Assembly (NCBI GenBank): GCA_963805065.1
Contig: CAWDSS010000010.1
Span: 472,359-536,358 of the forward strand
Source: Candidatus Omnitrophota bacterium
GTDB lineage: Bacteria; Omnitrophota; Gorgyraeia; Gygaellales; Profunditerraquicolaceae
Length of the DNA: 64,000 bases
Direction of reading: 5' to 3'
Shown: one piece after another, positions 250 to 51,200 of the stretch
Layout: each line of letters begins with the position of its first letter
How positions within the stretch are numbered: the first letter of the stretch is position 1
Made by a program: the position numbers and the translations under genes
The notes under the pieces: generated by a model
Databases searched by the model: none
Told to the model about the DNA's origin: nothing
The model's input: the letters and a program-made list of their open reading frames with translations, nothing else

Positions 250-3200
250 CGGCGAACTGGATTCGGCTTCCTTGTTGTTAAGCACCGGCGAGGCGGCGGT
301 ATTTTTTCTACCGGGAAACTTAATTGCCACCAAAAGTTCATTTAATTCTCCTGGGTTAGTAAAAGCGCTAACACTATACTCTCTAATCTTAAGTCCACCG
401 CTTCTTTTAAAAAGGATGTTATACAGCGGCCCACAGGTAGCATGAATATGAAAACCTCGTGTTTTTAATACCCGCGTAAGTTCTTTTATAATTATAGATG
501 CATCATTTTCCGATAGGTGCAATCCTTCAAAAAAACGGCTGCTGATTACTGCATCAAAAACTTCATTAGCAAATTTTATATTTTTGGCATTTCCGCAATG
601 AACATCCAAATCCCACTGCTTAGCTGTTTCCACTGCAACATGGGAAATTTCATAGCCAGTGACCTGCGCCCCAAATTCATCTCGCAAATATCTCATTAAT
701 TCTCCGTAACCGCAACTTACTTCCAAGATTCTTTTATTTTCTAGATTAGTCAACTTTTCTGTCAAAGCATAAATAATAGGATAATAAAAATATTTGATCT
801 TTTCGGGTTCATAGTTAGGCTTTCCTCCCTCTTGTCCTAAACGTCCTTGCCAGTAGGCATCAAATTGATTATTTGGTTCGCCTTCCTTATTTAAGTCTCT
901 AAAATAATGAAGGGTTGTTACCTTATCGTTTTCTCTAGACATCGGCGAGGCGACGCGAGTTTTCTCACCCATCGGAGAACTGGGTGATGGTTGAATCAAT
1001 CTGCAATGAGGATATTTTAAATCCAACACCGGAAAGTCCGATGAAAAAACTTCTTCCAGCTTATCCTTTGTGTAGCCGCGCGATTCATCGTGGTTAATAA
1101 GACGTGCTACGGACACAACGCCTTCGGTCTTTGCGAATATTTCTGAGTGGGCACCACGAACCAAATGTCTCTTAAGTTCTCCGAGCGTTCGATAATTTAT
1201 ATTTTTTCTTTTCGCTCTCCAAATCAGTATGGGAAGATGCATTTCTGTTTTATAACCGCTAGCAACGTCTCTTGAAAAGCAAGCGAGGATATTTTCCTTC
1301 GGCACGCGGTAAACTGTGCCCGTTCCCCGTAGTGTAGAAAAATGTTTTTCGGTAATAAGTGCAAAAGACGCGAATGCCTTCCCCTCGAGATCCATGCATT
1401 TCACAAGTAAGGAGAAATTGAGAGGATCAAAGTTATTAATGTCGCTCAACTCTATCTCGCTTTCGGGACTTAAGGGCCCCAACTTTTCCATCTCAAACAG
1501 GCACACTGTTTTCTTCATAAAGATGGCGGTGATTTTCTTTCTGACATGAGGATCATAAAATGCCCAATCCGCCAATACTCTGCCGCAAATAATCTGCACT
1601 GCGGTATCATGCGGAATCCAAATGCTTTGTTCCCAATCAACGAATTTAAAGAGCCGGCTCGGCTCCGTTATCTTGAGTTGCTGCTGCCATTGACTGCATA
1701 TGTCTTTTAAGGCATTCGCTAATTCACCGTCTATTTTATTGCACCCGATACTAACGTCGCCCCCTGTCCATTCATCACTTAACGCACTGTAATCCTTGGG
1801 GTTATCAATCGTGCAATTAAATTGCCTTAGTGGGAATTTGTCCCTAAGAACCCTTAGAATAGAAATAGCCATCAATGAATGAAGCACCACATTGATATTC
1901 TCTCCCCAACGAGTTACTTTTATAGATCCCTTAGGGTACGCAGGGTACCCCCCATATGTTGGTAAGTTAGCCACCTGTTCTGCTAAATCAAGTTCAACTT
2001 TTAAATGCCTGGCTTTAATTTTCACCGGTGAGCTTCCGCGGTAGGCGGACCAGCCTGTGGCTGGAGAGGGATCAGGCGCCACCGGCGAGGCGGCGCCATT
2101 AGTTATTTTCCGCAAATCAGTCTCTTTGCGCGTAATATTTGTACATATAGCAATATTTCCTCTACACGCCATAAATAATAACTTGTTATACAGAGACATT
2201 AATCTCCAGCTGTCTCTTAGAGGTGAAGAGGCCTTATGTTCTGATTTTATTTTTACATTCAAATCTTTTAATCGGGATGGAAGATTTGCTATCAAATCAT
2301 CCGGGCCATTAGCAAGAATGGCCGGCATACCAATTTTACCCGCGGTATCTATATCAACCTTGGGACGGTCACCAATTGATACTGCCAGCTGGGGTTTACA
2401 GCCAAAATGTTCGCAAATAACTTTAAACATCTTAGATTTTCCTTCCGGCACATCTTCCTGAGTAACTACAAAATTAAACAGATCATATATATCAAGGGCC
2501 TCTAAAATACCTTTAGTCAACAGACGGCCATTATTGGTGGCAATGGCCAAGAAATATCCTTCATTTTTCAATTCGTTAAGTAACTTCCTAAGCCTCTGAT
2601 TTCTTTTAATCAGCTCAGGCGTTTTACGCAAATAACGCTTTGGAGCATCTTTCAACATTTCTCCCTGATAAGCAAAATACGTGACTAAATCAAGCCCGAA
2701 GAATCGTAGCATTGCACTCATGCTGTTTAATTCTTTCTTTTTGCTACGGAATGCTTCGGTACCTATACCGCCAAATTTCATCGAGGCGTATTCGCAGCAT
2801 GCATTCTCTTGCGCTAAAGAAAGTGCTCTGGAATCATGCAGCGTATTACCTACATCAAAAATAAGCACTTTTATGTGATTAACGAGAAGATCTTTAGTTT
2901 GCATGGGCGAGGCGGATGTAATTGTTTTCTCAAGAACTTCTTTAATATTTTTTGCTACTTCTTCAAAATCTTGCAACCTACGGCCTTGCAATGAGCGTAC
3001 ATCTAGAACCATAGCTTGAACATTGGCTTGAGAAAAATCGATATTATGGGCTTCACGCCAAGATGTAATAATGTTTGTTCCTGAACCAAACGCATCAAAG
3101 AAAATAATATAATTGATTTCTACTGATCCTTCTTCGGGCATAATATTTGTTTCTCCTATGAAACGGGAAACTAAATACTTGTGGTTAATATCTGTTGAGC

Positions 3201-12200: not shown

Positions 12201-15200
12201 TTGCCTTGAGCACTTTTTTGATGGCACAACGTAATTGTTCTTCATTCTTATATGTTTTATAATAAAGAACCTTCCAAACAGCTTCTTCCATCTGCGCAAA
12301 GTTTTCCTGAGCCCTAGGAAACTTCAGGCCTAGGCGTGAATAAGTAAGCGCAAGAGCTGCGCGTATCTCCTTTATCGAGCAAGGTCTAGACAAAAGCCAC
12401 TCAGTCAATATCTTCTCTTCTGTCCTCCTGGCAATATACAATGCAGTGGCCTGCACATCACCTTTAAGTTCCGGATAGAGCTGCCATATAAAATTCGATA
12501 TGACGACAAAAGACTGGTAATAAAACTTATGCACACTCCTAAATTTATATTCTTTTAATTTAGCCAAATAATAATCAAGCCTGCCGGATAATTTTGTATA
12601 AATAAAATAGTAAGCCACGAAATCACCAACAGTATTCTCGTTCTGCAAAAATTTAGAGAATTTCATCCGATATTCAGTATAGAATAATACAAATGCGGCG
12701 AGAATATTGTCGTTTGAAAGATTTCGGCTTTTTCTTAAGAATCCTGCCAAAACAGACTCTTGGGTTTGCTCGGCAATAAAAAGCGCCGCAGCCTGCATAT
12801 CATTTTGCATCTGCGGATAAATCAAAAAAATCCTTTCCAAAATTCCAGGCAACACACCATATAGCAGAACATGCTTAGTCCTCTTGGATGATTTATTTTT
12901 TAGATTTCTTAAAGAGAAAATAAGGGATTTATTAATTTTCACAAAGCCTCTCAACGCAGTGGCATCTTTTAAGGCCTCTGCGCACTGTTTACGAAGAACA
13001 CTAAAGAACACCGCAAAGGCTATACGGATCTCTTGTTTTGCATACTTCTCATCCGAGCTAAAGAATTGTATCAGAACCGGCTCCTGTAATTTTTCTGCGA
13101 CCAAAAGTGCCAAAGCCTGAGAATCTCCTTTCTTCTCCGGGTGAAGTAAAGAAATCTTCCTAAAGATCTGAGGCAATATGCCATTAAAAAGCGTCTTTTT
13201 TGTTCTACCTGCTGGATTGTTTTTAAGATTCTCCAGTGAAGTTAAAAGTGAGTAATAATCATTAAAATTCTCCACTATCCGGCCGATATACTTATTCGTA
13301 TCGCAGGTCTTGTCCTTTAATTCCGGATAGGCCTCCCAAATCCTGGAATAAATTATATCTCTTAAAAGAGGCTTAAAAATTTTCACATTCATTTTTCCAA
13401 GATCATGGCTCACAAACTTAAGGCTTTTCCCAAGTGCCCTATACCTTTTGTAATCCTTAATAGTTCGCTCGATAAAATTAATATTTTTAAAAATATATTC
13501 GGGGAAAAGGCGCCTCTCACGAGAGAAAAACATTCTAAATAAATCCATAACCTTTTCCTCCTTCATTTCAGATTGTAAGTATTTCTTAAGCATTCTATTC
13601 TTTAATTCTTTAGCTAAGAAACGCGCCAAAGCCAATCGGCTATCTCCGATTTTCGCGGCTAAAAGCTCCTGCGCGCGGTACAGCGTCTTAAAGAGTACAT
13701 TAGGATGCCGTTCAGCAGGACGCGATTTAAAGTTATTAATGATCTTATCGATACGGGCCTTTTTCTGAGCTGCTTCATCGCTCCACCCCGGGATATAATC
13801 AGTAATAAGAATATCCTGTTTTTCTTTTTTATCTGTTGAGATGCTAGCGTTAGAAACACGCTGTTTATCATTAAGGTCGCGCAGATACCCTTCCTTATCT
13901 ATCAAGAATACCCAAGATTCATCGGTCCGCGTATTAACAAAAGCAAATCCTTTTGCAAAACCGTAAAATTTGATATAGCCATCAACAACCAAATCTTGAT
14001 AGTACTTATAGGCTTTATTTACGGATAGCTCCATCCTAATCTGGTTCCACGTCACATAAGCTCTGCCATCTTTTGAAAGTCGAACAATCTTACCTTGCCG
14101 CGCCTTATATGCCCGTTCTAAAAGATTTTCCAATTCCAGCATAAAACGGCTTCTGTTATACATTTCTCTCAACAATTCAGCTATCTCCTGAGGTGTTTTT
14201 ACAGGCTCATAGTTATATCCGAGCATACCTAAAGAACCATAGGTATAACCATAAGAAAGAACATTGGCGATATCTTCATCGAGTATGCCATGCTGTTGCA
14301 TGATTATAATTTCAGAAAGGATGTTTTTATAAAAATCTGCGATCGCAAATTCTGAATCTTTTTGATATTCAAGGCCGATCCCTAAAAGTTTATCGGCATC
14401 TGCTTTACGCCACAATTTATTTTCTTGATGGGCAAACCAGAAAAATTTGCTCTCCGCTGATTTCTTACCATTGGGGAATCTGAAAGCGTTTTTAATAATC
14501 TCTAGAGCAAAAGGATTAATTTCCCCTACTTCTTGCTTCAGCCTATTTAACGTATCCCTGACAAATTTCCGCCTGTTCTTTCGGACCTTTCTCTGTTCCA
14601 ATTCTTCTGCCCAATCCTTCACAGGACTACTCGTCTTGCGATCAAAGAGGGTCCCCAGTGGAACCGAACTGGGAGTTTCTGCATCAAGCGCCTGCCTGAT
14701 AAGCTCTTTATCGATAGGGCTGCCGGCGTCTTGCGGTCGCGCACTCTCAGTCGTATCTAACGGTAATGCATTGCAGTAATCCATCATCGCTCTCCGGATA
14801 ATTTCCTGAGTGATGGATGAACTGGCGCCGGCAAGCATGATCGATCTACTGGAAGACGCTATTTGGATGCTGGAAGGATTCCTGGATTCCGATATAACCT
14901 CTCCCACCATAAACCATGCATAGAGGTAAAGTGCCTTGATTTCTTCTAAGATCGGATAAGGTGGCCCCAAAGTTCTTTTTTTACCAAGCCTTTCTTTCTG
15001 AACCCATCCAGTTTCGTTATCCCAGAAACAATCCAAATAATAATCAGAAAATTTAATTTCAACCAACTTCGGATAAATAGAAGCAGGAAACTGTTCCTTG
15101 CGCTCTTTTGATATTTTTTCAAGACTAAAATAAGGAATGTAAGCCGTTGATGAGAAAAACTCAAGCTGGCGGGCAAATCGTTCCCAATCAACAGCTCTGG

Positions 15201-18200: not shown

Positions 18201-21200
18201 CTGATATAACAGGGCTACCTGACTTATTTCCTTTTTTAGTAACTAGCCAAGAAGAAAGTACATCATTAAGTTGTGTTAAATCTTCAAGCTTACTCTGTAA
18301 TACTTCGCTCCACAAGTCCAACTCGTCATTCAAGTGCATGATGTCAGTCATATAGGCTTGTTCCCAGTTCTCAATGAACTTGTCTTTACCAGCCAATGAA
18401 AAATATTGGCTCATTACATCAGATAAATCTTCCTGTAGTTTCTTTACAAGAGCAAAAGTATTTTGAGCGTCTTCTAATAATATATCGACTTGGTTCAGTC
18501 TTTCTTTTCTCTGTTCCGATAAAGAACGGGCGTATTTACCTGATTTTAAAACATCTAACTTGTCTTGTACTTCTTTCATCCGCAGTACTACATTTATCAA
18601 AAGGTCAGTAATATTAACGTGTTTAACCGGGCTACTGCCGGATAAATTATCCAATAAATTATAATCGGTTGGTGGCTGGAATAGTTCAGTAGGAAGATCT
18701 TTTTTATAATATTGACTATATATATCCTCGGCAAATTTTTTAATTCTTACCTTACGCTGCTCTTGTGGTCTTTGCTGTTGTTCTTCATCAAACCTATAGT
18801 AATTATCAGGAATAAATTCTCTATGCTTAGGATTCCTTTCGCCAGGATAGTTAGATAAATCTGTCGCATACTTGATGCAAGTGTCTAAAGATGCTGCTCC
18901 TGCATAACCTTTATTCTTTGCCTCTGTGCCTGAAGGCCTAATCTCTAGCCAACCCCAATCAAACATAAGATATGTTTCATCTCCTACAAATAAAACGTCG
19001 GTAAGACCAGAGAAATCTAAGCTATTAAATGCTTCGGAGAGAATATCTTTAGCTTGATCTAAATCAATTAAACCTTGTCGCTTAGCTAAAGCAATACCCA
19101 AGAAATAAGTATCATTGGTCGAACGGATGATTAGCCCTTGTTTCTTGTCTACCTCTAACTTGGCCTTATCCGGCTCATTGGGATTATAATAAACTACATC
19201 GGATCTAAAATCACACCTACTTTTGATTTTATTGTGCGTAAATATATCTTCCAAATATTCTGATAACAATTTGTCTTCTTTTTCTATAAAGCCGGCTAAG
19301 GCGGCGGTTAATACTATTGCCTCTCCTGCGGATTTTTCTCTCATGGCAATGGCTTTCCTCTTTAATATCAGGCTCTCGATAAGTTCCACAGGGCCAAATA
19401 TTTCTCCTCCGGATTCTTCGCCAGCAAATAGCAATCTTGGATTTACGCCTAAATTAATCTTGTTGCCATATACATCTTCTATAATTACAACTTCGCCATG
19501 ATGTTCACGCATGTTCTTCTCTATTTTTCTCATAATTGCGGCGATTTCCTTAAAACCAACCGGCACATTGACAACAGGAACGCCGTTTGCTTCTGCCCAC
19601 TCATCCCATGAACGGCTTGATGCCGTAGTTTTAATAATAAACCAATTGTACTTCTGCCAATAACCTGCTTCCTGTAACGATTTTGCCTGATAATCAATAG
19701 TCATTAAGAAAGACTGGTTGGGGATATAAACAACCAGCATCTTTTCATCATCTATCGGCATGTAAACAAGCCCAAGTTTCTTAATACGCTCCATATTGCT
19801 TAACGATTCAATCTGAGCTGTAACAAGTCTGTCTCCATCGGGATCAGTAATTAAAACAACTGTGCCTACCGGCACTCTTCTTAGGGTCTTTTGGTACCCC
19901 ATTGTTTCAATTACGGGAAGGGTAATTCGAGTTGTATCTATAACTAAAATCTTATTACCTAAGCTTATATAAGGAATATTTTCTTGCTTTAGACGAAGAA
20001 TAACTTTCTTATTTTCTATTTTTGCAACAACCTTACCAATGGGGGGCTGATTAATAAATATGATACTGCCAGCAGGTACATTCTTAAATAATTCAATAAA
20101 CATTTCTTCCTTGGACTGAATCAGTTCCATGATCTTTGAAGCAACTTTTTCTTTATTGATAGCCACCACTGTGGCATCACAAGAAAAATCATAAAATCTC
20201 AAAGAAGGCCTATTGTCGGATTCACCAATTTTTAATTCATAACCTTTGCCGATGCCATGGAAGAAAGAATCTTGTTTAGTATGCAGGAAACGGAATGACT
20301 TTCTTATGCCTAGATTACGGAAAATGCCGTTCATAATCTGGTACGTACAACCACCCACGCAGTCAATAATGATTGGTTTTCTTGCCCCCCTGATTAAACT
20401 AAGGTTAATTTTTGTAGCGACGCCCTTCTTAAGGTAAGGTACATAGAGTTTTATGCCGCCGTCAAGTTGTTCTAAGATATCTGTTCGAATAAATTTGCTA
20501 TCAACAGAGGCGATGCGGATTTCATAAAAACCTTTTTCATCGATAATCGCAAAGATCTTCTCTATCTCATCCAAGAATTCCTTGGATTCATTGGGTAGAT
20601 ATTGGCTTCCTTCATTATTGATATCTTTTGTAGCTGTGGTGGTAGCGATCGCGTGGCTGGCTGTAACATATTCTGCTCCCAAGAGATCCAGCATAAAAGC
20701 ATCAAAACAGGCCAACCAGATAGAGGTCTTTTTCCCTTTTATAGGCACTAAAGTTGTAATACCGTAGGCGGCTTGTAACCTTGCGATGAGCTCTACGAAT
20801 AAATCCGAATTGTAGCGCACTTCAGAAGAAACAAGCTTATAGAGTGTTCTCTCTTGATAATTCTTTTGGGCTGCTAAAATTTTTCCCAAGGTAGCTAAAA
20901 GTATTGAGAAAAGATTAATCGGATAAGAGATTCCTTTTGGGGTAACTCCCGGATAGTAAGGGTAGAGTACATTTTGATCCCCTCTGGTACCCGCAGTAGA
21001 AATTTCCGTTTCCGGTTTAAATTTCTCATAAAACCATCTTCTTAACCCTAATCCGTGAGGATTGTTCATCTCATCATAATCTTCAAGATGTTGTTTATTT
21101 AAGGTGATACTGAATTCTCCTTTTTCCGAGAGGTTTATAATATTTGCTAAAACTTTATCTTTAACCCAGTCTGGCGTAGATTTATCTATACTATCAAGCA

Positions 21201-24200
21201 ACATCTCTTCTAATCTACTCGTGGGGCTACTAGAGGCCGCTAATAATATTGCGCTATTATTTTGGCCAAGTTTAGTTATCGCACTGCTGCCTGAACGCAG
21301 GAACACAGACTCAGGGAAAAAGTCTCCGGCGCGCAGAACAGCGACAATCGCGCTGATTTCACGGAACTTATCTATATCAGTATTATCGGGGCGCCGCGTG
21401 CCGCCCATAACATTCATCAGTATGTCTCTTGCAGTTTTCTCAACTTTACTAATCAATTCATGAAGTCTTTCAAGTAAAGGCAAAGCATATTCGTCTAAAT
21501 TATCTTTCTTAATGACAGGGACATCAGAAAATAATGGGAATAAATCTTTAAGCTTGAATAAAAGTTCTAGCTGCAGTTTAATGGTAATCAAACCATCTAT
21601 CATCTTTTTATCTTGTTGCATCAGTACGATAACATCGCCTACTGATTCCAATAAATAGTTGAGCTGATTGCGTACTGCATTAAACTTATGAACATCGTCC
21701 GTAGGCTTAAGCAGATAAACTGCCTGTAATATTGCCAAATAACTTTCCCGGATCTCTATGGTATCCAAACCCGCCTTATCCAAATCTATTACTAAACTTT
21801 CAAACAAGTTGTTCATTTTCTGGTAAGATAGGTCATTACGAATATCCATCGGGCTGCTGCCGGACAAAGAAACAATAGTTTTTAGAGAAAGGGCTGCTGC
21901 GAGATTCGAATCCCAACCTGCCACGGAAGATGGATTCTCCCGAGCAGCCATTCTCATGTCCTGTCCAGCCAAGAACAGAAATAATCCTTTCAATAAAGCA
22001 AGCGCCGCTGCGGAAAGGGACTCCACCAGCCACGGAAGGAAATCCACTTTTATATTCCGCAGCGACGCTAATTCTAAACCGCTTTCTATCTTAATGGGCG
22101 AACTGATGCTGCATAAGATAAGTCTGGAATTTGCTACGGATGCTGAAACTGAGTTCGGGCCCAAGATCAACCCAAGAACCCGCAGAACTCCTTCCTTGAA
22201 CTTTACCATTATGCTGAATAAAGAATTTGTAGCTGGAACCCCAGTCATGGTATTTCGCAAGTACAAAAATCCCCGCTTTGCTAAGCTTAATCCTATCGAG
22301 TTCAAGCATCTGCCAATTAAACATGGGACACCTCCTGTTTGGTCTTGCTGCCTTAAAGGCGAAGAAACTTTGTTTTCTGACGGTGGCTGGACGGCAATCT
22401 TGGTAAAGCTATCCTTATCCACCTCAGCTTGCGTAAATTGTAACTTACTTATTTTATAGCCGTTATCTTTGAGAATTCCTATGGCTTGGTTTAGACAAGC
22501 CTTGGCTTCCTCAATAGACATGTCAACACTCTCTGCTAACCGATAAAATGTTACCCATCTTCTAATCTCTCCGGTATCATCTTCAACAGCCTTGGACTTT
22601 AAAATGATGTAGTCTATGAACTCTACAATTGCAAGGTTATTGCGGAACTCTTTAATCTCATCCAAAATACCTTCAGCTATTCCTTTAACGTTATTTAAAT
22701 AATCATTTAATCTTTTTATCACGCTTTTACGATTTTCGTAGACATATAGCAGGAGCGCCTTGAATTCATCAGAGTGTTTTAATGCTCTGATACCTCCTAA
22801 TGCCCGGTTTTCGAGTAGATACTCAAAGGACCTTCTACCATCTTGTTGGTGTTCTTTGCTAAGCTTAGAGTTGTATTTTTTGGCTACTGCCGATATGCCT
22901 AAAGCTTTACGTAAGTATCTTACGCGTGGAAGGGGCTTATCTCTTTTACCTATCCGGATAATCCCCTTTTCATTGCGGCCCATATAGCGTTGCGAAGTAA
23001 AAATTCTCATTACAATATCTGCCAAAGACTGACGGAGTTCCTTCATGGTCGGATTATTTTCCAGAGGAGAACCGGTGACTGAGAGCTCTTTTTCTAAATC
23101 CCAAATCCGTTCCTTAAGATTTATATTGCGGTCACGATAAGACAATATTCTAAGGATTAGCGTGTCTTGGACAGAATTAAGCGCCTTTTTTCCTTTGCTG
23201 CGCTTAAAATTAGCAGCCAACATTTTTCTAATTTCTTTGTTCCTTGCAATTTGATATTCGTAATACTTTATCCAAGCTCTTATATATTCAGCGGTAATGG
23301 GTTCGGGGGTCTTTTCAGCAATGTATTCTAGTAATGCTTTATTTACGCGCCGTTCATTTTGTTCTTTAATACTTTTAAGATACTCTGCAATCTTGGCCGC
23401 TTCAGCCGGTACAGTATTGGATTGTCCTGTTGTTTCTTCATTTACAGGAGAAGATGATATTTCTTCATCTAAGCTTACCACTTCAAAACTGTTTTCATAA
23501 ACGCGGACAAGGTTATGTTGCCGGTCAAACAATGCTCCTACCTGCCTGGCGCAACGAATTTCTTGTTCTGTGTAAGGGCACACATCGCATCTTATATAGC
23601 CACGGTTAATCAATGCCGCCTTTAAGGCATGTCTTTCAGCCTGTATTTCTTTATATATAGAAGAATAGTGAGGTTCTTCCGGGTCTACTCCGGGAAATTG
23701 TATTGATACATCTAAATCAGATCCTTGCTTTTCCCTGCCATCAGCATAGCTGCCAAGGACTAAAACCGGGATTGGAAAGAATATGCCTTTTAGTTCTAAT
23801 TCCTCAATCGCATCTTGAGTATTTCTTACAATATTCTTTATACGCTTCGAAGTTACTATTATCTCCGTTTTCTTTTGAGCCGGGGAGCTGGTCTGATTTT
23901 TTCGATAGGGCCTGCGCTTATGCTCTATCCTGCCATTTCTTACCTGATGCTCGATACTCTTTACTGTCCAAGGATTGCCCCTCCTGGTTTTATATCCTAG
24001 TTCATTAAGCTTATCTACAATCTGCTGAGACGTCTTTCCTTTCTTACCTTTACCTTTTTGGATTGGTTTACGTATTGATGATATTAGTGCAAGAGTTTCA
24101 TCTAATTTAACAAAATCTGCCCTATTCCATTCTAGTTTACTTAATTCAAAGCGCACAGTTCCTTCAGTTATCTTTTTTGACTCTTTTAATTCACCTCTTG

Positions 24201-27200
24201 ATTCTTCTGCAATCAAACCTGTAAGTACGCCTGCCAGCTCTGCATTAGTCATCTCTATAAAGTTCTCTAAGAGAAAACGCAATCTCCGGCCATTCCAAAT
24301 CTTAATTCCTATAAGAAAGCCTTCCGCTTCCAAAATTTCAAAAGCCATTACATACTGTTCAGGCGTATATTCTTTCCCAATAACGCGCCTGAGACATTCA
24401 ACTGTAAACTCATGCGCTCTTAATTGCCATTTGCCTCTGGCTCTTGATACTTCATGCAAGGCTTTACCTTGGACCAGAATACTTCCCCCAAAATTAGAAT
24501 CAAGCACGCCCCCAAACTCCTTGCTGTTATTTAACCTTTTAGCTGGTGAGCTGGAGCCCCGGATAATTGGCTCAGAAACATTAGATCCACCTGCAATGCT
24601 ATCTTTCTTACTACGAGTCTTATGTTTTAACATAGCCTTCCAGATAATTCCTTTGTATGGATTCATCAGGATTATACTAATGGGAGGTACGAATAACAAA
24701 ACCACAGTCAATATAATTATGTATGAGGGATTTCCGCCCGTCAGGAATGCATAATCTCTGGCCTGAATGTCATAAGCCAGATACATGTGCAGAAAATCCA
24801 TCATATAATAATGCCCTAAGGAAAGACCAATGATAAAAGCAGAGAGATATGTTCTGGTTTTTCGCAACTTGTAACCTATTAAGAACAAAAGGAAACTGGA
24901 GGCAAGGGCCTTGAGGCCACTAAAACTCACCATAAACTCTGCCGAGAATCCACAAACAACTTCTAATAAAGGTATCTCGATACGTGCTATGGAATTTCTT
25001 AAAATGGCCAGGGAAGCAGGAAAGAAAGTTATAATACTCATCCATGCAAAATCTGCAACCGCTACACTCCACACGCCAATGATTTCCCACATAGACTTCT
25101 TTCTCATGCGCGTTAGCGACGCATAATCATAGATGTCATTCTTTTGATTATCTCTACTCAAAACACTGGAAAGCAGATGTAATACTAGAACAGAAGAGTA
25201 AACTGTAAACAGTAAGGTGACGCTACCAATGAACGCCCAAGAACTGTAAGCTGCTGCGCCCATAAGGAGAAGAGGCGAAATAAAGAGTGCCGTCAAGATA
25301 ACCCCCTGCAAACGGCGAGTAATCATATCTTCACGTAATCTATTGTTTTTAACTCCGGGCGTAAACTGCTTATCTGAAAGTGTCTCCCCAGATGTAGATT
25401 TCATATCTCTTAATGCAATATCTAGTTTGGTTTGTATGTATGTTTTGGATTTTATTAGGATAATACCCAAGGGAGGTATAACTAATAAAGTTAAGCTCAA
25501 CAGTAGACAGTAAAATAAATCGTTGCTTGTTAAAATTTGGTAGTCTCCCCATCCAAAATAACTGTAAATAACAGTTGAAGACATTTGCATAAAATTCATA
25601 ATATAATAATGCCCCAGAGAAAAAGCCATCAAGAAAACAGAAAGACGTGACTTGGTTTTTTGCAACTTGTAACCTAGCAAGAATAAAAGTAGGCTGAAAG
25701 CCATTGTTCCCAGAACCCCAGGAGCTATCCAGAATAATTTCATAACGGTATTATGGTCAAAAATGCTAAAAATCCTATAGGGGTGTTCAAAATCACTAGG
25801 ACCAGCTCCCCCTCCTGCATCCTCAATTAGGTATTTATAAAGAGCCGTTATTATATCCTGTCCTTTGATTCGCGCTTCTTTATATGCATCCAGTTTCAAA
25901 AGGAAAAGGTCTATGGGAGGATGATACGCAAGACTCGAGCCCAACCAATGTCCTAATTCATGGAAGAAAACCCCAATCCCTATACCCAATTGGTCAATTC
26001 CTACTGCTAACATCCCCAAGGATGCCCAGATATATTTCTTTTGCGATTTCGCTATTCCATGCTTTCCGGCCGTGCTCTCTAAGGTAATATTTTCTTGATA
26101 ATTATTTTCAAATTTGAAAAATGCACGTAACGTCAAATAAGAAAATGGAATCATCATAAATAACCCAATACCTTCAGCATAATGCCACATACTGTCAAAT
26201 GACCATCCGCAATAAGTATCTACAGCGGACACTATAATCTGAGTTACTATGAATGCCATAACAGCATAAGTCCACTGACGCCAAGGCGGAATAACTTCAT
26301 TTAGGCTTAGGTATGGGGATTTCTGGAAGATGCTCTTTAATTTTGCATATTTGGCCGGAGAACTGGAGGACTGCGCCTCTTGACTTTTGTTTAGATTAGC
26401 CGCTGCAGCAGAAACTACCGCCACCAGCCACGGAAGGTCAATAGTTCCCTCTTCCTGCAGCGGCTTAACCAAAAATAACCCGCCAGAGAGTAGAATAATA
26501 TACTCCCCACCAGCCACGGAAGGTAAAGTATATATCTCGATAACCTCTCCAGCGGGTAATCTGATACGTATAAATAATTCTAAAGGCGAACTAGAATTAT
26601 GTATTTTTAACGTAAGCCTCTTGCCTTCCAAAGTGTTGAACGTCACATCATAAATCTGGACAGCAAGGTCTGTGAGAATACGCTTATATAGGTATTCTAA
26701 TGAGAGGCGGCTACGGTATCCCTCAAGGTATCCTCTCCATACGTTAGAATTTGAAGTAAATAAATCTAAGTACCCCTGAACCGTCTTTTTGGGATAATGC
26801 AGGCTATACCATTCAGCAATCTTTGTCATTGCCCCTTCGCCAGTTGGCACAAGGAACTGACCCTTGGCAAGTTTTTTCAAACTTTCATCATTGTCCGCAG
26901 CATCTTTTAAAACGTTGCCCCAATCAGGATTACCCGAAGCATCGAATCCTCCAGCAAAGTTAATTTCGACTGTCATTTTAGAAATTACTAATTCTATTGG
27001 CGTTATTTCAGATAAGAAATTAATTATATTGGGCCTTATGGCCGGCGGGACACCCCTACGCCACTGATAATTCGCTACACCGCTAAGCAAATGAAGTAGC
27101 GTTTTTTCTTCAGACGAAATTATTCCTTTATCAGAAAGCTGGGAGATAAATTGTAATTTGTCCCAGGCGCTTAGGTTTTCAAATTTGAGGTTTTCAATAA

Positions 27201-30200
27201 GGAGGGAATCAATGAGGCTGGCAATCTGCGCAAATTCTTGTAAAGAAGGTACATTTTTTATTTCTTCCAGAGTCGGGGGAGCACGGCAGTCGGTTGTTAA
27301 ACGTTCAATATAGAAAAGAATAATTGCTCTGTCCGCAGTAAGCTTACGCCTTTTACCCATCACCAGATCAAAACCATGCTGCCCAAGATAAATAGCGTAA
27401 TCCTTTAAAAGGCTTTGCGATGGATTATCCAAGCTTAGCCTACCAGCTGCTGGCTTATTTTCTTCTCTAAGAGGCTCTTTATTCCTCTTATTTACAAAAC
27501 CTCTAATAAAATTATTATTATTAGCTATTTGTTTATTCATAATCTTAAGATAATCCTCTAAAATTTCTTTAATAGCATTAAAGCCTTTATTAATAAGACT
27601 ATTTCCAACTTCCAGAGCAATTTTTACCGTATCAAATGGTGATGTTAGGTCTTCCTTACGGTAAAAACTATGCTTCCCTGTTAATCCTAATTGATTTTCT
27701 AAGGCAGCTATTGAATTTAAATCAACTGGAACTTGATTAGAGATTATTTTATCTATATTTCCCAAGGCCGCTTCCACTTTGTGAATTCGCATGTAGGTAC
27801 TGTCTATAATGTGAGCGGCCTGTCTAATTTTCGGCACTAATTTCACATCTTCTTCGCCCAAATTAAAGGACTTAAGTATATCTAAATATGCCTCTGGAGT
27901 TTCAATCGGGTTTGGCATAGTTTCATTTATAGGGCTGCTGGTTCCGAAGCCAGCCTCTTTTGATTCAGGATTATTGCTGCCGTTAGCAGGCACCTCGCAA
28001 GAAAATACGCCATCCACAACCTGCTCTAAGAAACCAATCGCCTGGAGAGTTATCAAGGCCTTTTTCTTTATATTGGGCTCTGACGTGGCATATTTTGCAA
28101 AAGTGGCTATCTGTTTTTCAAGCCGTTTTAACCCTGTGGCAGCCACCAATTCCTTAACATGCCTCAAAACATCTCCCTCGCGATAGCTACTGGAATGATG
28201 GAAGAATATACTCCAAATCAAAAACCTTCCTTCCTCAAGAGCGCGTATGGATTTAACATTGTTCAAGAAAGAGACGATGCTTGTCTTATTACTGCTATTT
28301 CCCCATATGGGTTTTTGTACATGCACCCAAGCCTTATATTTCCATTCAAACTCACCAATCACGCGATCACCGATATAACTTTCTTTAGCAAAAACAGTTT
28401 TAAGATTTTCTTTGCTGTCTGATCTCAAAGCCTCGATAAAATCGGAGAGTTCCTTTCTGGCGATAATGGCTCTTTCCCACAGTTTGATATGGGCTCGCGA
28501 CTGGCTCCTCTCAATATCCACCTTAGGTGTGGTGGCAATAGCTTGATACATAGCTTCCCTGCGTGATTCCTCTGTCTGATAAATCCTGCCTAACCACAAG
28601 AAAGATTCATAAAGACTCTTGACCTCGAGGTTCCGTCCTCCCATATCCGGATCTCTAGGGTCAGTATCAGAAAACTCAACCAAATGTCCATTGGTAATTT
28701 CAAGCTTATCAGCCATAAGACCTTCAACAATTTTATCGTGGAGTTTGCTTGTGGTGACCCTAGATTTAAACACGTCCAGGAGTTTCTTCGTTCGCTTTTT
28801 AACAATGTTAAACAATTCGGGCATGGCTCCGCCAAATACTCCGATTAAGACCGCAGCATTCACCAGAGCCTTCATAATGCTTGTCGCCGAGGCCTCAAGT
28901 AATTCAAAGGCCAACATAATAGCCGCATTGACTGCTTTAAAAATAATCTGTGCATCTTTAATATTGTAGTTTTCTATAAAAGCAACCCTGTTTTCTAGCC
29001 CTAATTTTTTCGCGAGCCGCTTTAACTCATCAAATAAATCCTTGGCCTCATCATCGAATAATCTGCCGCCGATAATCAGACGAGTGCCGGACTTTTTGAG
29101 CTCATCCAATGCCGAGGCGTCATTTTCAAGCCATTTAAACATTTCCTTATATTTCAACGGCCCCTTATACTTAACCTGGCGCCTGACATTTGCGGCAATA
29201 GGATGTTTCATTAAAATATCCACAAGTGTTGAGAACGTATCAAATGCATTTTGCCATTGAGATTCATCTTTGATGCCTCTTCTTATAAGTTTTTTGAAAT
29301 AATCGCGCACAGAATTTATATCCATGAGGCCATACGGCGTGTCCTTAAATATCTCTCCGAGCCAAGTGGCGCCTCCCATATCCTGCGTCTGATAAGTATT
29401 CAACCATATCAAGAACTCAAGCATATAGAGAGCCTTAATCATCTCGAGACGTTTTTTAAATTCTTCCTTCAAATCACTGTTCCGCTTTTTGGCAAAAGCA
29501 GTAAAAAGTTTCTTGTCTTCCACTTGCTCCTCAAGGCCTAACTTCTTTTTAAACTGCTCAATCAATTGTCGAAACTCTATCCCTTGCCATTTATCAAGAA
29601 GAACGCCGTTGGTGTTACGAATACTATCCGTTCTATAACTCCATACCTTATGCAACCAAGCTGGTAATACCTTTTCTCTTAAAACAGGCGTATGCTCAAA
29701 TAACCCCACGCCAGTTGTAAAATCAACGCTTAGGAGAGCGTATTCAGCAATATCTATCTCTCTTCCTTTTTCTCCTAAACGCACGATGTAAGGCCTGTAA
29801 GACTCATCAAAACCCAGCAATTCAAAAGAGTATTCCCTTGGCCTATACATCCCGTGTTTCCAGACCGTATGATTGATGTGCTGACGAATGGGCTGACGTA
29901 GTAATATGGCATCGCAAAAATGTTTTTTAGGAAGACTTACGTAAACTTCATTTTCCAGGAATATGATCTTCTCTTTTGCTGCACCTCTTTTTTGTAGTTC
30001 TTTGACTAATAGTTGCTCGGCTTCGTTATAAACTGCCATCTGGACATCGCGCCAATCATTGTCCGGATATAACTCATTAAAAATATAGATTTTCTCGTTC
30101 TTCTCATTGTAATAATAGGCATCCTGATAATAAATAGGGAACTTTCCATAGAGGCTTTGGGTCCTGTAGATGTCCACCTTTATCGGCTTTCCGATAATCT

Positions 30201-33200
30201 GGCGAGCGGCTTCCACATTGGCTTTTTGCTTAAACTCTTCTCCTGTAAGCGTAATATCCGGTATTTGAATGTCTGTCTTTTCTAAGGCTGCTCTGATAAT
30301 GTCTCCAAGAAGATTTCCATGAAGAATATCCTTTATCATTGGCTCTGGTAATTCTTTTGGCAGCTCTCTTACAATCCCTTTGATAAGATTATAAATAGAA
30401 TTAATGGAAGTTATGTCAACGCCGTTTTTGGCATCGCCATCCGTTAAATCAGGCATAAGAACTCCCAAGCCGCCCGCCATAACAACCTGTGCCACAAGAC
30501 GAGCAAGATGTTCCAAGGTCTCTTTCTTCATTAATCCTTCCTGATAAAAATTAGCGTATTTTTTAAGAATGACTTTTTCTGTCACCTCTCCGAGACGTTC
30601 AATCAAACCCCTGTCTAAGGCATTTTCGAATTGTAAACTAACGACTGTGTATTTCCCAACGACAGGTGCATTCTTCTTCACCCAGCTACGTTTATCCTGC
30701 GCTGGGTTAACATTCCTCTCAAGCGGCGAAGATGATAACCTGGCCAGCTGCTTACTGATGATGTCTTCATATTTGGCTATCTTACCGCTGGTAATCCAAT
30801 CTGGATCAAACTTTTGAAGCTGGCGTAATAATTTTTCGTAAGCTGGCTTGTCATGGACATAGAGATTAAAAAGTTCTTTGGTTGCAACAAAAATAGCTTT
30901 GGCGCTCTTCATGCGCTCTCTCACTGAAACTTTATCATTACCAATTTCAAATCCAGGCACAAGCTTAAATGCCCCTCCCATATTATAAAAATCAACCAGC
31001 CCGCCCCTGGCAGTAACAATCATGGGTACTAAAAGTTCTGCCATCTCTTGGTCAAGCAAACCACCCGGTTCATCAATAGAAGGCATATCGCCACCTTCAC
31101 TACCAGCGCCAGCCTGCCCGGCCAAAGTAGTATTAAACTCATTTACAAAAACAAACTTTCCCTTATATTTCCCCTCAGCTACAATTGCATTAAGCTTTTT
31201 AACAATATCCTTCCCAATCACATCCCTCTCACCCGCGGTACCTTGAATATATAGCTGTAATTGTGCACCGGTTGCTTTATCTTTAATGGATAAAAGGGCG
31301 TCAATCAGCTTTGGCCCGCCTTTGTAAATCGGGGCAAACAAAATATTCAAGCCTTTTTGCTTTACGATTCGTCCGATAATTAAGTTTATAAAATTATCCG
31401 GGTTGAACGCATCAAGCCCGACTTTTTTCTGAAATGCGCGCTTATTGTGTTCTTTCCAGCCAAGAACATCTTCTTCAATCTCTGCGATAAATCCTTCCTG
31501 TTTCAACGCTTGAAGATTTTCAGGTCTGTATTTCGCAGCCCTTAAGCCGTTATAGACAAACTCTAATTTATCCCTCATAGACTGCAAAACACCATCTAAT
31601 CCATAACCTCTTGCAACTGTGAGAGCCTCATTCATATGGCCTTCGCTTACAAACACAATTTTATCTGCATAAATAAATGCGCCCTTCATTAAGTTGAGGC
31701 CTTCATTACCTCCCTTTGTTTGTAATTCTGCTCTTAAATTAGTCAACTTAAAAATCTCAATGGCAAGATTGGTTTCAGAAACATGGTAATAATTTGCTGT
31801 CGGGTCTGCGTAATGGGCATGGTGCTTCAAAACACCTCTTTCAAATAAATATTGCACCAGTTTATCATTCAAAGACTCGATCATTGTGCCGGGGAATAAT
31901 CCTTGATATTCAAGATTGTGAGTTGTGAACAATCTCATAGGCCTCCTGCCTAAAGGCCATTTTTTATTAGCATATAATTCTTCTAAGAATACTGGCCCAA
32001 ATCCTGTCTGCCAGTCGTTAAAATGATAGGCGTCAAACTGAACATTTAATATTTCGGGAATAATCAGAGAAGCCAAGGGCAAGTTAATCCCCTCCAGATA
32101 TCCTCCCAAAGAATCTGGATCAGGTTTAGCATAAAGATCAAAGAAAATATTTCCCGTGCTGTCATAAAGCAATCCTATGGGTACACCTTCCTGCTCTGCA
32201 TAGATAACTTTTAGTGGGTAGGTACCAAAACCCACAGGAACCTCAATATCCATAAGCTGCTTAGCACCAAAAGCCTCCATAAAATTATCAATGGTGCCAT
32301 ACGTTACTAACACATCATTGAAGAATAGAGGTTTCGTTACAAAGGAAGCAATGCCTTCTTGAGATGAAACGATTGGAACATCACCCATATAAACCGCCTG
32401 TCCTCCACCCTGACCGGAAGCCTGTTTTAATTTATTCCCAGTTTTATCAAATAAGGGCATTTCCATAGCAACAATATTTACAGCAAATTTTCCATTCTTT
32501 CTGGCTAATGCGATTCTGTCGACAATCTTCTTGTGTAAGGCAGCATTTATCTCTACCGGGTTAATTGGGCTGCTTGTACCAAGTTTTTTAGAAAGGGAAT
32601 ATTCTGAAATTATATCTATGTTCTTATCAGAACCTTTGAAATAATAAAGCGCGGCAGTTTTTGCTTTAAATCCTCCCCAAACTCTGCTATGTAATATATC
32701 CAACACCTGCTTTTCATTTTCTGTTAATTCTTCTTCCAAGTAGCCCATAGTAGCATGCGGTTTATATGTAGCATAAGCCAGTACAATTTCCGGAGCTATC
32801 TGCTCATGTAATGCAATTATTTCAACGAGGCGAGTGAAATCAGCATCGTTCATGTGCATCGGAACATATAAAGCTAAGTTAGGTTTAGGCATTACTCCTA
32901 AACCCCTGGCTTCAAAATTGACGATAGATAATCTGGCGGGCAATATCTCATCAGAGAGGATTTTGGCTTTCTTAATAAAATCCTGTTTAATCGGATTAAC
33001 GGATGGCTTAAAACCAACTATGGTAACGTGATTGGTTTTCGGATTATTCCAAGAAATTTTGTCTAATATAGCTTGTGTTAACTCCTGTTTCAAAACAGAT
33101 TGTGTTTCTTCCATCATTCTAGTCTCAATAGGAAATGCGGAATAAATACTGTATCGCTGAGCTACAATAGAGATTGTCGGGCTGCTGACTTCAGCCTTTT

Positions 33201-48200: not shown

Positions 48201-51200
48201 TGTTATCTAGCTCACTTTCCATTAACTTCCTATATGCCTCTTCAGTCCAAGTATAGAGCATTTCTTTGGCTTGAGTTTCATCATAGCCGGCTTTGTAGAG
48301 CAAGGCCTCTTTGGATAAGACAGCTAAATTGTTGTATAGTGCTGCAGTGAATTCTGTTTGCTTTTGCGAATCTTGCTGGTTTTGCTGTTGAGCTTTGAGA
48401 GAGAAGATTTCAGCTAAGGTGAAATGATTTGCTTTGGCTAACTTATCAGCTTCAAAGCGGATAATATTTGCTTCTCTTTCCATATGAATTATATATGAGT
48501 TATAAATTAACGTGTCCAAATCTCCATAATTACCTTTTAAATCCTCGAACAACTGTTCTTCCTGTGTGGTTAACCTTTCTTCAATATGATTCTTAAGATA
48601 ATCTCGCACTTCACTAACTCCCAGACCCACGAGGTTACCAAGAACTATATTGTCTATTTTTCTATAAATCGGCAACTCAGTGCCATAACCAAGATATTTG
48701 TACACAACACCTATCTCTTCTTCTTTGCCTGGGAATAAAGGAGCTTGCTCTTTAACTAAAACCATGCCTTTTCCGTCATTCCAATGCGTTAATGTATCTA
48801 ACGCCTCTATAAACGCCCTTTCAGTTTCCTTTTGACTGATATCAATACCCAGCTTACCGGCAAGCTGCGCTATTGTGTAAACCATATAAATTGGAGGATG
48901 CCTATTAAAATATTCATCGAGCTTGCCTAATAATTCATTCTTGAGCTTGCTGAAGCGCCTTGCCTTTAGAATGCTACTGATTGGGCCAATAGTTAATAAG
49001 CCAATCCATAAATAGGAACTCCAAATTTCATGGATACCCAAGAAATTAATGAGATTTGAGCCGAAAAGCAAGGCTATAACCGATACTAAACCAGACCATG
49101 CATACCATTTATATTTTCCTGCATTTTCAACAATAGGATTCCAGACTGCATCAATAGTTGCCATTCCAACTTTACCGCCTTGGATATATGCCCGATAAAC
49201 GTTGCTATCAGGGAAGTATTTTCTCTTAACTGGTTTTAATGGTATTAAACCAAATAACCTTACGCCTTTATAAGCGAAGGTTTCTTTGCCTACTTTTAGC
49301 TCTTCTCCACTCCCTGTCTTTACGCCAAATCCTAAAATAAACAAGTCCTTCATAGCTTTTCTGAACATAAACCAACCACCAATAACCATCTCTATAACCC
49401 TCTCTCTGCGGTGTGCTTCCAATACCAACCAGCTAGCCAGTATCAATAAAGTAGGGATAGGCACAAATAAGCTATAAACACTTAATAAGAGAATGGTGGC
49501 AGTATCAGCAGATGTTTGCCTGCCGGTTAATGCGCTGCCATTTATTAAATCTTTAACCTTCAATATAAACCATACGCCTAATATGCCTGCCAAAAAGTAA
49601 TATCCTAAAACTAGGGATACTATTAAGCCTGTGGTACCCATAACCAACGGGACTACCTTACTTGAAGTGCGTGGTTCGGTATCCAGAGGATTATAAATAA
49701 ACATACCGCCGACCCAGTTATACATCATCAGGATGAACAAAGGAGCAACAAATAAGAATAGACTAGGTTCGTATGCCGCGAGCGTAAAAAGTAGTAGTAA
49801 AACGGGGGCTGCGGGCCGCGCTCCAAAGATATGGCGTAACAGTAAAACTCCATAAGTTTCTTTCTTGCTAGCCGGCTCTCTTGTTGATACCCTGAAATCA
49901 AAGAAACCCTTGAGGCCTCTTCTAAGGGCTGAATTGTCATACATCGGGATAAGCAGGGTAAAAATCCAGAAATAACCCGGATCATAGGCAGTGCCTTTAA
50001 TGAATGACAGTAGCCCTTTAGGTGAGCCATATTTTAAATTAAGCATGGCAACAGTTGCAAAGTTGATAGCCATAGCCATGCTGTAACCGGCTAATACAAA
50101 CATCCAATTAATTGGGAACGCATACGCAGGATTAATAGGCAAGACAACTGCAAATATATTAAATATGACATTAGTAATAAGGACTGCCAATTTCAAGCCA
50201 TAGAACGAACCCGGGGTATTTTGGTTATCATATTTTTCATTTAAAGGAATATTCGGGCTGACATTGAAACGCACAGCGCCTAACATATCCTCTAACTCTT
50301 CCTGGTCGGCAATATATTTCTCTTCCGGGTCAGCATTAAGGCCAACACTTTCACCCTTGCCGCCATAGAAATTAATCGCCTGAGTATAATACACTGAAGG
50401 GCCTTCGTTACGCATCATCAACACAAAATAAGCATCTTCTGCTACCAATGTATAAGGCAGGCAGATTGCCGGCATATTCCAAACATACTTATAGTCTGAG
50501 GCTATATTGGCTTTGGGTTTACGCGGCCTTACCTGTAAATCTACTTTAGCGCCGCCGCCTCTCCCGTAGAAAAGGACCATACCTTTCAGGGACTTCACCA
50601 ACTGCACCATAAAAGTCCAGGTAGTTTCAGAGATTTTAAACCCTCGCCTGACTATGGTGGCATCCGGGCTTATTACATCCATTGCCATAAGTAACACGCC
50701 ATATTCAGGATGATTAAAATGAGAAATAACATTCGGTAAGAACATACATCTACTAAATGTACGGTGATGTGCTGCGTCTCCATAAAGCGCAAACGAAGTT
50801 AAATACCTTAAGTTCAATACCCAGCCCATGGCTTTGTATTGTGCATTTGCCTCTCCAAAACGTAACCTGCCGGTCATCATTGCTGCTCGCCAGGCGTCAG
50901 ATGCTTGAGTTGGAAAGCTATCAAAATCAGGATGAATATTTGCCCATAGTATCAGATGCTTTTTTAACAACTCAGATATGCCCGTAAGATTACCTTGAAG
51001 CAGATTATCAATCTTAGTGCCATCTTGAAGTTCTTCTTGTAATGATAAATACTCCTCTTTTTTCTTTTCTAATTTTTCTCTATCTTCGGGTTTTTGTGGC
51101 TTTGCTAAGGCTTTATTACATTTTTCTATCTCTTTATTTATTAATCGAGATAATTCTTTTTCTCCCCTATATACCCGGATTAAACTCTCCAACAAAGTCA

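Follow-up and report, generated by a model that had tools for sequence, protein, structure and literature searches.

The giant genes of Omnitrophota have been described as encoding single proteins of tens of thousands of residues, whose cleavage points are unknown in the 2023 description. A 64,000-nucleotide stretch of one such genome (Candidatus Omnitrophota bacterium, GenBank assembly GCA_963805065.1, contig CAWDSS010000010.1, positions 472,359 to 536,358; hereafter the window) raises the question of how much of such a gene is protein at all, as an initial annotation had noted a 17-nucleotide sequence that recurs in two small modules and is translated in two codon phases. The 17-mer is most probably the conserved tip of a mobile-type palindromic element that is passively translated, a nucleic-acid entity and not a protein motif, resembling repetitive extragenic palindromes (REPs), Rickettsia palindromic elements (RPEs) and miniature transposable elements with inverted repeats (MITEs). 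The element family is spread through Omnitrophota and related metagenome genomes of the Planctomycetes-Verrucomicrobia-Chlamydiae (PVC) group, almost always inside giant stop-free genes. Thus, giant-gene sequence is not all protein, and translated hairpin repeats found across the phylum mark seams between enzyme modules.

The window is a single stop-free frame of 21,333 codons on the minus strand, each of the other frames containing 872-2,072 stops. The 17-mer (CCACCAGCCACGGAAGG) is present exactly on the plus strand at 22023, 26421 and 26507, as first counted, and the degenerate copy placed near 21915 proves to be a three-mismatch copy at 21914-21930; the 64 kb contain no further copies. Chance would supply 0.08 matches in the window, and four copies were reached in none of 100 shuffles. 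In the minus-strand giant frame the copies at 26421 and 22023 are translated LPWLV, the copy at 26507 PSVAGG and the degenerate copy PSSVAGW, confirming that the same 17 nucleotides yield both LPWLV and PSVAGG; elsewhere they are read in all three phases. Every copy forms the tip of a coding-strand hairpin that is 60-80 nt long and has a folding free energy (dG) of -29 to -38 kcal/mol. RNA structure had been suggested as worth seeking around the repeats, and these four hairpins (Table 1) are the strongest 80-nt hairpins in the window (window mean -13.4, standard deviation 4.5). The peptides SAAA and AAALS are simply their translated GC-rich 3' stems (GCAGCGGC and GCAGCAGCC, respectively). A covariance model of the family (R1, described below) has only these four matches within the window. 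Neither Rfam (release 15, positions 21000-27500, E<=5) nor a tRNA scan gives a match at the hairpins, and a scan for intrinsic terminators (GC-rich stem, 3-8-nt loop, U run) flags none of the four. The other strong hairpins, at 2025-2104, 14601-14680, 28825-28904 and 31049-31128, are not repeated in the window or in the other loci discussed below.

The two modules, A and B, coincide exactly with stretches between successive junctions of a Ser-Ser-Pro (SSP) motif, and the boundaries first drawn for them therefore hold. These 'twin modules' are two tandem hairpin pairs in short SSP-flanked linkers. In module A the phase-0 copy comes first and the phase-2 copy second, and in module B it is the other way round, which accounts for the 'permuted' order of their shared motifs; the order stands as described, but its cause is the opposite phase order of the hairpin pairs and not a rearrangement of protein domains.

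The hairpin family extends well beyond this genome. An exact 17-mer scan of one genome per species (185,579 species) returned at least 119 loci, of which the high-GC actinobacterial ones are chance matches, and the 17-mer has no match in viral contigs. At about 50 loci, from metagenome-assembled genomes (MAGs) labelled Omnitrophota or Omnitrophica, 'uncultured Planctomycetales' or unclassified, the motif is likewise found at the tip of a hairpin, here of 70-95 nt. The structure was tested on 43 aligned copies with 23 base pairs, the alignment from which R1 was built. Stem cells are paired in 90.5% of cases versus 44-55% when the 3' partners are slid, compensatory changes are found at 19 of the 23 pairs, and the observed values were reached in 0 of 500 shuffles. 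G.U pairs outnumber A.C pairs in the stems by 110 to 21, an excess which shows that the folding strand is the sense strand. R1 also picks up divergent copies adjoining exact ones in other loci, and divergent copies retain CCGTGGCTGG. The apex (CC-U.U-CC / hexaloop GUGGCU / GG-GGG) is the invariant part of the family, while the outer stems are of at least three classes by sequence. The full element measures 60-85 nt, and its ends are inverted repeats that form outer stems of 11-14 bp. Many copies have a U/A-rich tract downstream. The hairpins receive no mention in the small sample of giant-gene literature that was checked.

The position of the copies relative to genes is equally constrained. 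Fifty-five of 57 copies lie within frames of at least 900 codons, all 55 in sense and none in antisense orientation. Of the two intergenic copies, one begins about 40 nt past the stop that closes a frame of more than 2,606 codons (locus L099), and the other lies between two ordinary co-directional open reading frames (L040); Rfam has no match at either hairpin. Codon phases 0, 1 and 2 are used in about 21, 13 and 9 copies, giving PSVAGG, FRGWW and LPWLV. Landing is thus indifferent to codon phase, so that the same bases are translated into three different peptides, and the GC-rich stems produce their Ala/Ser/Gly-rich flanks. In giant genes that use SSP, the SSP nearest to a hairpin is a median of 13 residues away versus 105 for random positions, and all 18 hairpins tested are nearer than the random median, indicating that hairpins occupy short SSP-bounded linkers as they do in modules A and B. 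The apex motif alone is also found in reverse orientation at L032:1005-1021 and L084:6637-6653 (plus strand), within a 5' untranslated region upstream of a Shine-Dalgarno sequence and ATG and 40-110 nt downstream of a c-di-GMP-I riboswitch aptamer. Such a reversed motif might serve the element as a natural target or pair in antisense with the hairpin loop.

A link to mobility comes from nested copies. Whole hairpins lie within the apical loop of another copy at L015 (three levels deep), L058, L099, L103, L053 and L111, and, judging by their flanks, the L040 and L048 copies are probably nested as well. In the nested layout the outer copy runs up to ...ACCTTCCGTG, the inner copy spans CCCCGTTG...CAACGGGG and the outer copy resumes at CGTGGCTGGTGGGG..., in the same orientation and with CGTG on both sides. 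Insertion splits the hexaloop at its centre (GTG^GCT), and the 4-nt CGTG duplication is present at all nested copies, which would fit insertion after CGTG by an element ending in CGTG equally well. When 84 nt (28 codons, made up of the 80-nt element and CGTG) are excised from the outer L058 copy, the remainder is again an uninterrupted element, identical at 70 of 75 positions to the L048 copy, which lies on the same contig with its own apex intact. Tandem pairs are found at L047, L076 and L101. At L086:1490-2014 (plus strand), an array of at least seven copies within 560 nt keeps one codon phase in a giant frame and encodes a repetitive xSVAGx peptide. The three phases, the covarying stems and this link to mobility together identify a DNA- or RNA-level element, as was first proposed from the two phases of the 17-mer.

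The element therefore probably is, or has been, mobile in the manner of REPs and REPINs, RPEs or MITEs, and it is best read as specific to this lineage. Movement would occur in trans through an enzyme that recognises the apex, which would serve as both the family signature and the preferred target. Copies would persist in giant genes because they are stop-free in the sense orientation and are located in linkers between enzyme modules. Dispersed homology and hairpins would in turn make these linkers seams for the in-frame duplication, gain and loss of blocks, and an extra role at the RNA level, in transcript stabilisation or processing, is possible.

Several observations weigh against mobility. 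The loci were fetched by the exact 17-mer, so that its conservation is partly by construction, and non-nested copies have no consistent target-site duplication. For the four copies in the window, insertion cannot be demonstrated, as the collections searched contain no close relative. No transposase or recombinase is tied to the element; a gene for a 307-aa Y1_Tnp protein (IS200/RAYT-type) lies at L120:7236-8159 (minus strand), 1.8 kb from the only free-standing copy of a small gene described below, and has no R1 hairpins near it. Avoidance of stops also fails to explain the sense bias, as the antisense core appears open in all three frames. The bias instead points to an RNA-level function or to a strand-specific mechanism that involves single-stranded DNA.

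Known bacterial repeats share some of these features. RPEs are selfish elements of about 150 bp with one conserved peptide frame per family (Ogata et al. 2000, cited in PMC10969869). Like RPEs, the present element is a short palindromic repeat inside protein-coding genes that is translated while the host frame stays open, but it is only 60-85 nt long, uses all three phases, is always in sense, has a phylum-wide apex, nests within itself and resides in giant-gene linkers. REPs and REPINs, with their RAYT (Y1) transposases and their clusters known as BIMEs, are non-autonomous hairpin repeats that are thought to move as single-stranded hairpins (PMC3116915, PMC3337134). The likeness lies in a hairpin repeat of tens of nucleotides in many copies, arranged as singlets, doublets and clusters. 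However, REPs are extragenic, take both orientations and conserve an arm, whereas here nearly all copies lie in long open frames, in sense, and conserve the apex. No cognate RAYT flanked by R1 hairpins was found in the 8-kb blocks around the loci. IS1397 and ISKpn1 insert into the loops of REP palindromic units, and integration of the present element is similarly aimed at the loop of a palindromic repeat, but the insert is the same small hairpin and not a full insertion sequence, and the duplication is the 4-nt CGTG. Bacterial MITEs (such as Correia, ERIC and Nezha) have terminal inverted repeats that form a long hairpin, duplicate their target and are occasionally fused in frame to host genes (reviewed in PMC10969869). 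The terminal inverted repeats are MITE-like, and the CGTG at nested copies may be a target duplication of this kind, although other copies have no consistent one; the strictly sense orientation and the three or more classes of outer stem that share one apex are unlike MITEs. We know of no parent insertion sequence with matching ends. In integron attC sites the order RYYYAAC...GTTRRRY is opposite to that of the outer stems here (GTTGGAA...TTCCAAC), the invariant part of the present hairpin is its apex, and Pfam finds no integron integrase in the 64-kb window. Palindromic elements derived from IS200/IS605 are strand-specific and insert 3' of a fixed tetranucleotide without a true duplication; the nested copies would suit such insertion after CGTG as well as they suit a duplication, and all in-frame copies are on one strand. 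None of the compared systems (RPEs, REP/REPIN-RAYT and IS1397 loop insertion) fits all the defining features. The ideas of a CRISPR repeat, a tRNA-like structure, a signal recognition particle RNA and an integron attC site were dropped on inspection of the sequences.

A real possibility, though one with less in its favour than mobility, is that the hairpin works chiefly in cis, as a functional RNA element in giant transcripts and operons, and that its spread by copying is secondary. It could act as a stabiliser against 3' exonucleases, an RNase processing site at seams, a pause site for ribosomes or RNA polymerase, or an anti-termination signal, with the apical loop bound by a conserved factor. 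The strictly sense orientation (55 to 0) and the folding of the transcript-sense strand (G.U 110 versus A.C 21) are what such an element would display, as are the retention of the apex across many MAGs with covarying stems and the position of copies at SSP-flanked seams. The L099 copy after a giant-gene stop, the L040 copy between co-directional genes, the U/A-rich tract after many copies and the reverse-complement apex in the 5' untranslated regions of two c-di-GMP-riboswitch genes fit as well. However, of the roughly 35 seams in the window only 2 carry hairpins, copy numbers vary erratically between loci (from 1 to at least 7 in tandem), and nesting three deep is hard to square with a dosed regulatory signal; the terminator scan is negative and no Rfam family matches. 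REPs also act as mRNA stabilisers. Since REPs are both mobile and functional, an RNA role is compatible with a mobile origin.

It is rather unlikely that the hairpins are attachment or recombination sites for an integron-like, in-frame exchange of gene blocks within a giant gene and that the block at 22.1-26.4 kb entered when hairpin sites recombined, with a hairpin module left at each end. This comes close to the in-frame cassette, bracketed by the twins, that the initial annotation proposed, and the inserted cassette at 22.1-26.6 kb is not shown by the data. The nucleotidyltransferase, the recombinase-type helix-turn-helix (HTH) segment and the HExxH membrane module reported for the block are all present, the HTH as a partial match, and belong to five SSP-delimited modules (M3-M7; Table 1). 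In the phase pattern, A1 is matched by B2 in phase 0 and A2 by B1 in phase 2, so that recombination between either pair preserves the frame, but spacing divisible by 3 is automatic for same-phase copies in one open frame and the chance of the pattern is by our estimate roughly 2/9. The partial Recombinase/HTH match and the nucleotidyltransferase of toxin-antitoxin type would suit a mobile cassette, yet the Recombinase match covers only 38 residues and lacks the catalytic domain. The conserved part of the element is its apex as opposed to the base in integron attC, the core RYYYAAC...GTTRRRY appears to be absent, and nothing but the hairpin core is common to modules A and B, whose stems differ. 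The GC content of the block (0.37-0.42) equals that of its flanks, and the composition profile runs across both ends of the block without a break in GC or skew. A protein homology search with residues 12023-14258 among 5.8 billion sequences found nothing at E<=1e-5, and no relatives of the flanking module M1 are present among genome and metagenome contigs, so that presence or absence of the block cannot be compared between relatives; none lacking the block was found in the collections searched.

The serine codons at the junctions provide some evidence of a distinct history for the block. As previously noted, the Ser codon beside Pro is TCN at 7 of 7 junctions, from the junction before module A to that before module B, within a region where AGY codons dominate. 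From junction 44517 to junction 258 the order is TCN, AGY x8, TCN x7 (the block between the twins), AGY x4 and TCN x9, and the codon types fall in 9 runs (runs test by permutation, P=0.001). The SSP motif itself, with 35 occurrences, is not specific to the block. The runs suggest a mosaic giant gene in which segments of several modules each have their own history. Two comparisons in other loci favour a distinct history for the block as well as the recombination of hairpin sites. At L013, two hairpin modules of 155 nt that are 99% identical bracket 857 codons. L043 and L085 are homologous across the small gene and again across the hairpin and 2.1 kb downstream of it, while the sequence upstream of the small gene is not homologous. 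Between the stop of that gene and the hairpin, 606 nt (202 codons) are present in L043 but not in L085, and this extra stretch stops about 9 nt short of the hairpin foot. From the Ser-codon runs and these two cases we conclude that the linkers holding hairpins are recombination-prone seams, at which blocks change in frame.

That the modules are paralogous small protein domains, circularly permuted, with the 17-mer as a by-product of recent duplication, would explain why LPWLV..SAAA and PS(S)VAG are common to both modules, but this is contradicted already: within each module the same nucleotides yield two peptides, and other genomes add a third (FRGWW); what is conserved is the nucleotides and their base pairing, with compensatory changes; and there is no Pfam or NCBIfam family and no homologue among the 5.8 billion sequences. 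'Domains' such as LPWLV..SAAA are thus artefacts of a nucleic-acid repeat, and the case is a warning for annotation.

The giant frame encodes GNAT, NAGPA, HEAT repeats, several methyltransferases, glycosyltransferases, PGM/PMM, GAF-HD-GYP, TPR and HAD families in Pfam, and this chain of unrelated enzymes in one frame matches the multi-enzyme giant genes described for Omnitrophota. A small residue followed by Ser-Ser-Pro and V, I, L, M, A or T is found 35 times versus 2.7 expected in residues 6494-21333 (window 1-44525, minus strand) and divides the giant protein into modules of 42-1,359 residues. Its codons vary synonymously, which identifies it as a protein-level motif. The codon that follows Pro is often ATG or GTG, or is one change off a start codon. 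Roughly half of the other giant-gene loci of Omnitrophota are enriched in the motif too (138 observed versus 18.7 expected). Candidate roles for it are those of a processing site or a linker signature; the few giant-gene papers checked describe no cleavage or junction motif.

It is possible, though less likely than not, that giant genes are operons without stop codons, in which SSP linkers would be former intercistronic regions with their hairpins and small genes, the SSP motif would be processed, and the hairpins would act as seams. If this is true, processing at SSP would free the enzyme modules, the spacer peptide encoded by the hairpins being discarded, and loop-targeting hairpins would supply in-frame seams, explaining growth beyond 20,000 codons. 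The presence, in at least seven genomes, of a small gene with its own ribosome-binding site in another frame bears on this reading. Together with the hairpins and the SSP junction, this out-of-frame gene provides testable landmarks for the building, processing and evolution of giant genes.

The small gene of the window lies in M7 and ends 21 nt before hairpin B1. The giant frame crosses it at +1, and the giant-frame translation of M7 resembles nonsense. Homologues with 31-47% identity, each with a Shine-Dalgarno sequence, ATG and stop, are found at L103, L014, L085, L043 and L073. Four of these six copies, the window's included, are within about 150 nt of a hairpin and a fifth is about 650 nt off. 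The giant frame is at +1 relative to the small gene in all six, and at L122, where it is open through the small gene to the contig end, there is another embedded case, which makes seven genomes. Embedded copies have no stops in the +1 frame, while the free-standing L120 copy has four. Differences between L085 and L043 fall 12, 4 and 33 times at positions 1, 2 and 3 of the small-frame codons, and position 3 exceeds position 1, and position 1 exceeds position 2, in all 15 pairs; thus, amino-acid selection acts on the small frame. Homologues of the 77-aa protein escaped a word-indexed search, and the family surfaced only in an exhaustive HMMER search, which returned 38 stand-alone proteins of 71-105 residues (about 78 aa). 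A Met aligns with the start of the window protein in 33 of the 38, the rest having N-terminal extensions or a slightly later start, and W28, G44 and W51 are invariant. The protein has no match in Pfam, NCBIfam or PHROGs. A single-sequence AlphaFold model (pLDDT 78) predicts five strands and a helix, without a significant fold match in the PDB.

Table 1. Hairpins, linkers, block modules and the small gene, in window coordinates; E, expectation value; bits, score with covariance model R1.
Feature	Position	Strand	Description
Hairpin A1	26478-26557	-	Apex 26507-26523, phase 0 (LPSVAGG); dG -34.3 kcal/mol; R1 68.8 bits, E 8e-17
Hairpin A1 outer stem			CCCGCTGGAGAG/CTCTCTGGCGGG
Hairpin A2	26398-26465	-	Apex 26421-26437, phase 2 (LPWLV); inverted repeat I2; dG -36.6 kcal/mol; 61.9 bits
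Hairpin A2 3' stem			GCAGCGGC, read as SAAAA
Hairpin B1	22001-22069	-	Apex 22023-22039, phase 2 (LPWLV..SAAA); inverted repeat I6; dG -37.6 kcal/mol; 57.0 bits
Hairpin B2 (degenerate)	21891-21950	-	Apex TCTTCCGTGGCAGGTTG at 21914-21930, phase 0 (PSSVAGW); dG -28.7 kcal/mol; 35.1 bits, E 3e-7
Module A	26356-26583	-	76-codon linker, A1 + A2; SSP at 26584-26592 and 26356-26364; fold z-score -3.6
Module B	21850-22095	-	82-codon linker, B1 + B2; SSP at 22096-22104 and 21850-21858; fold z-score -4.0
M3	24544-26355	-	Duplicated HExxH membrane module
M4	23881-24543	-	Partial Recombinase/HTH match
M5	23446-23880	-	NTP_transf_2 / MntA-like minimal nucleotidyltransferase
M6	22357-23445	-	363 aa, helical; no assigned function
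M7	22096-22356	-	87-codon module holding the out-of-frame small gene
Small gene	22091-22336	-	AGGAGG 22331-22336, 6-nt spacer, ATG 22322-22324, 77 codons, TAA 22091-22093

Other parts of the window differ in character. Residues 1-5,000 (window 49000-63999, minus strand) contain zero Pfam families and zero SSP junctions, unlike the enzyme-rich remainder. At 2026-2220 (minus strand) there is an SSP-delimited mini-module of 65 codons with an implausible translation, in which a 70%-GC stretch (2025-2104) makes three small hairpins; this stretch is not repeated elsewhere in the window or in the other loci. The coding strand is the G-rich strand throughout the window. In the block, M5 and M6 could be a toxin-antitoxin-like pair that has been fused into the giant protein, and the HExxH module contains a 121-nt direct repeat (D1, 76% identity) at 24783-24903 and 25581-25701, which is an internally duplicated transmembrane segment.

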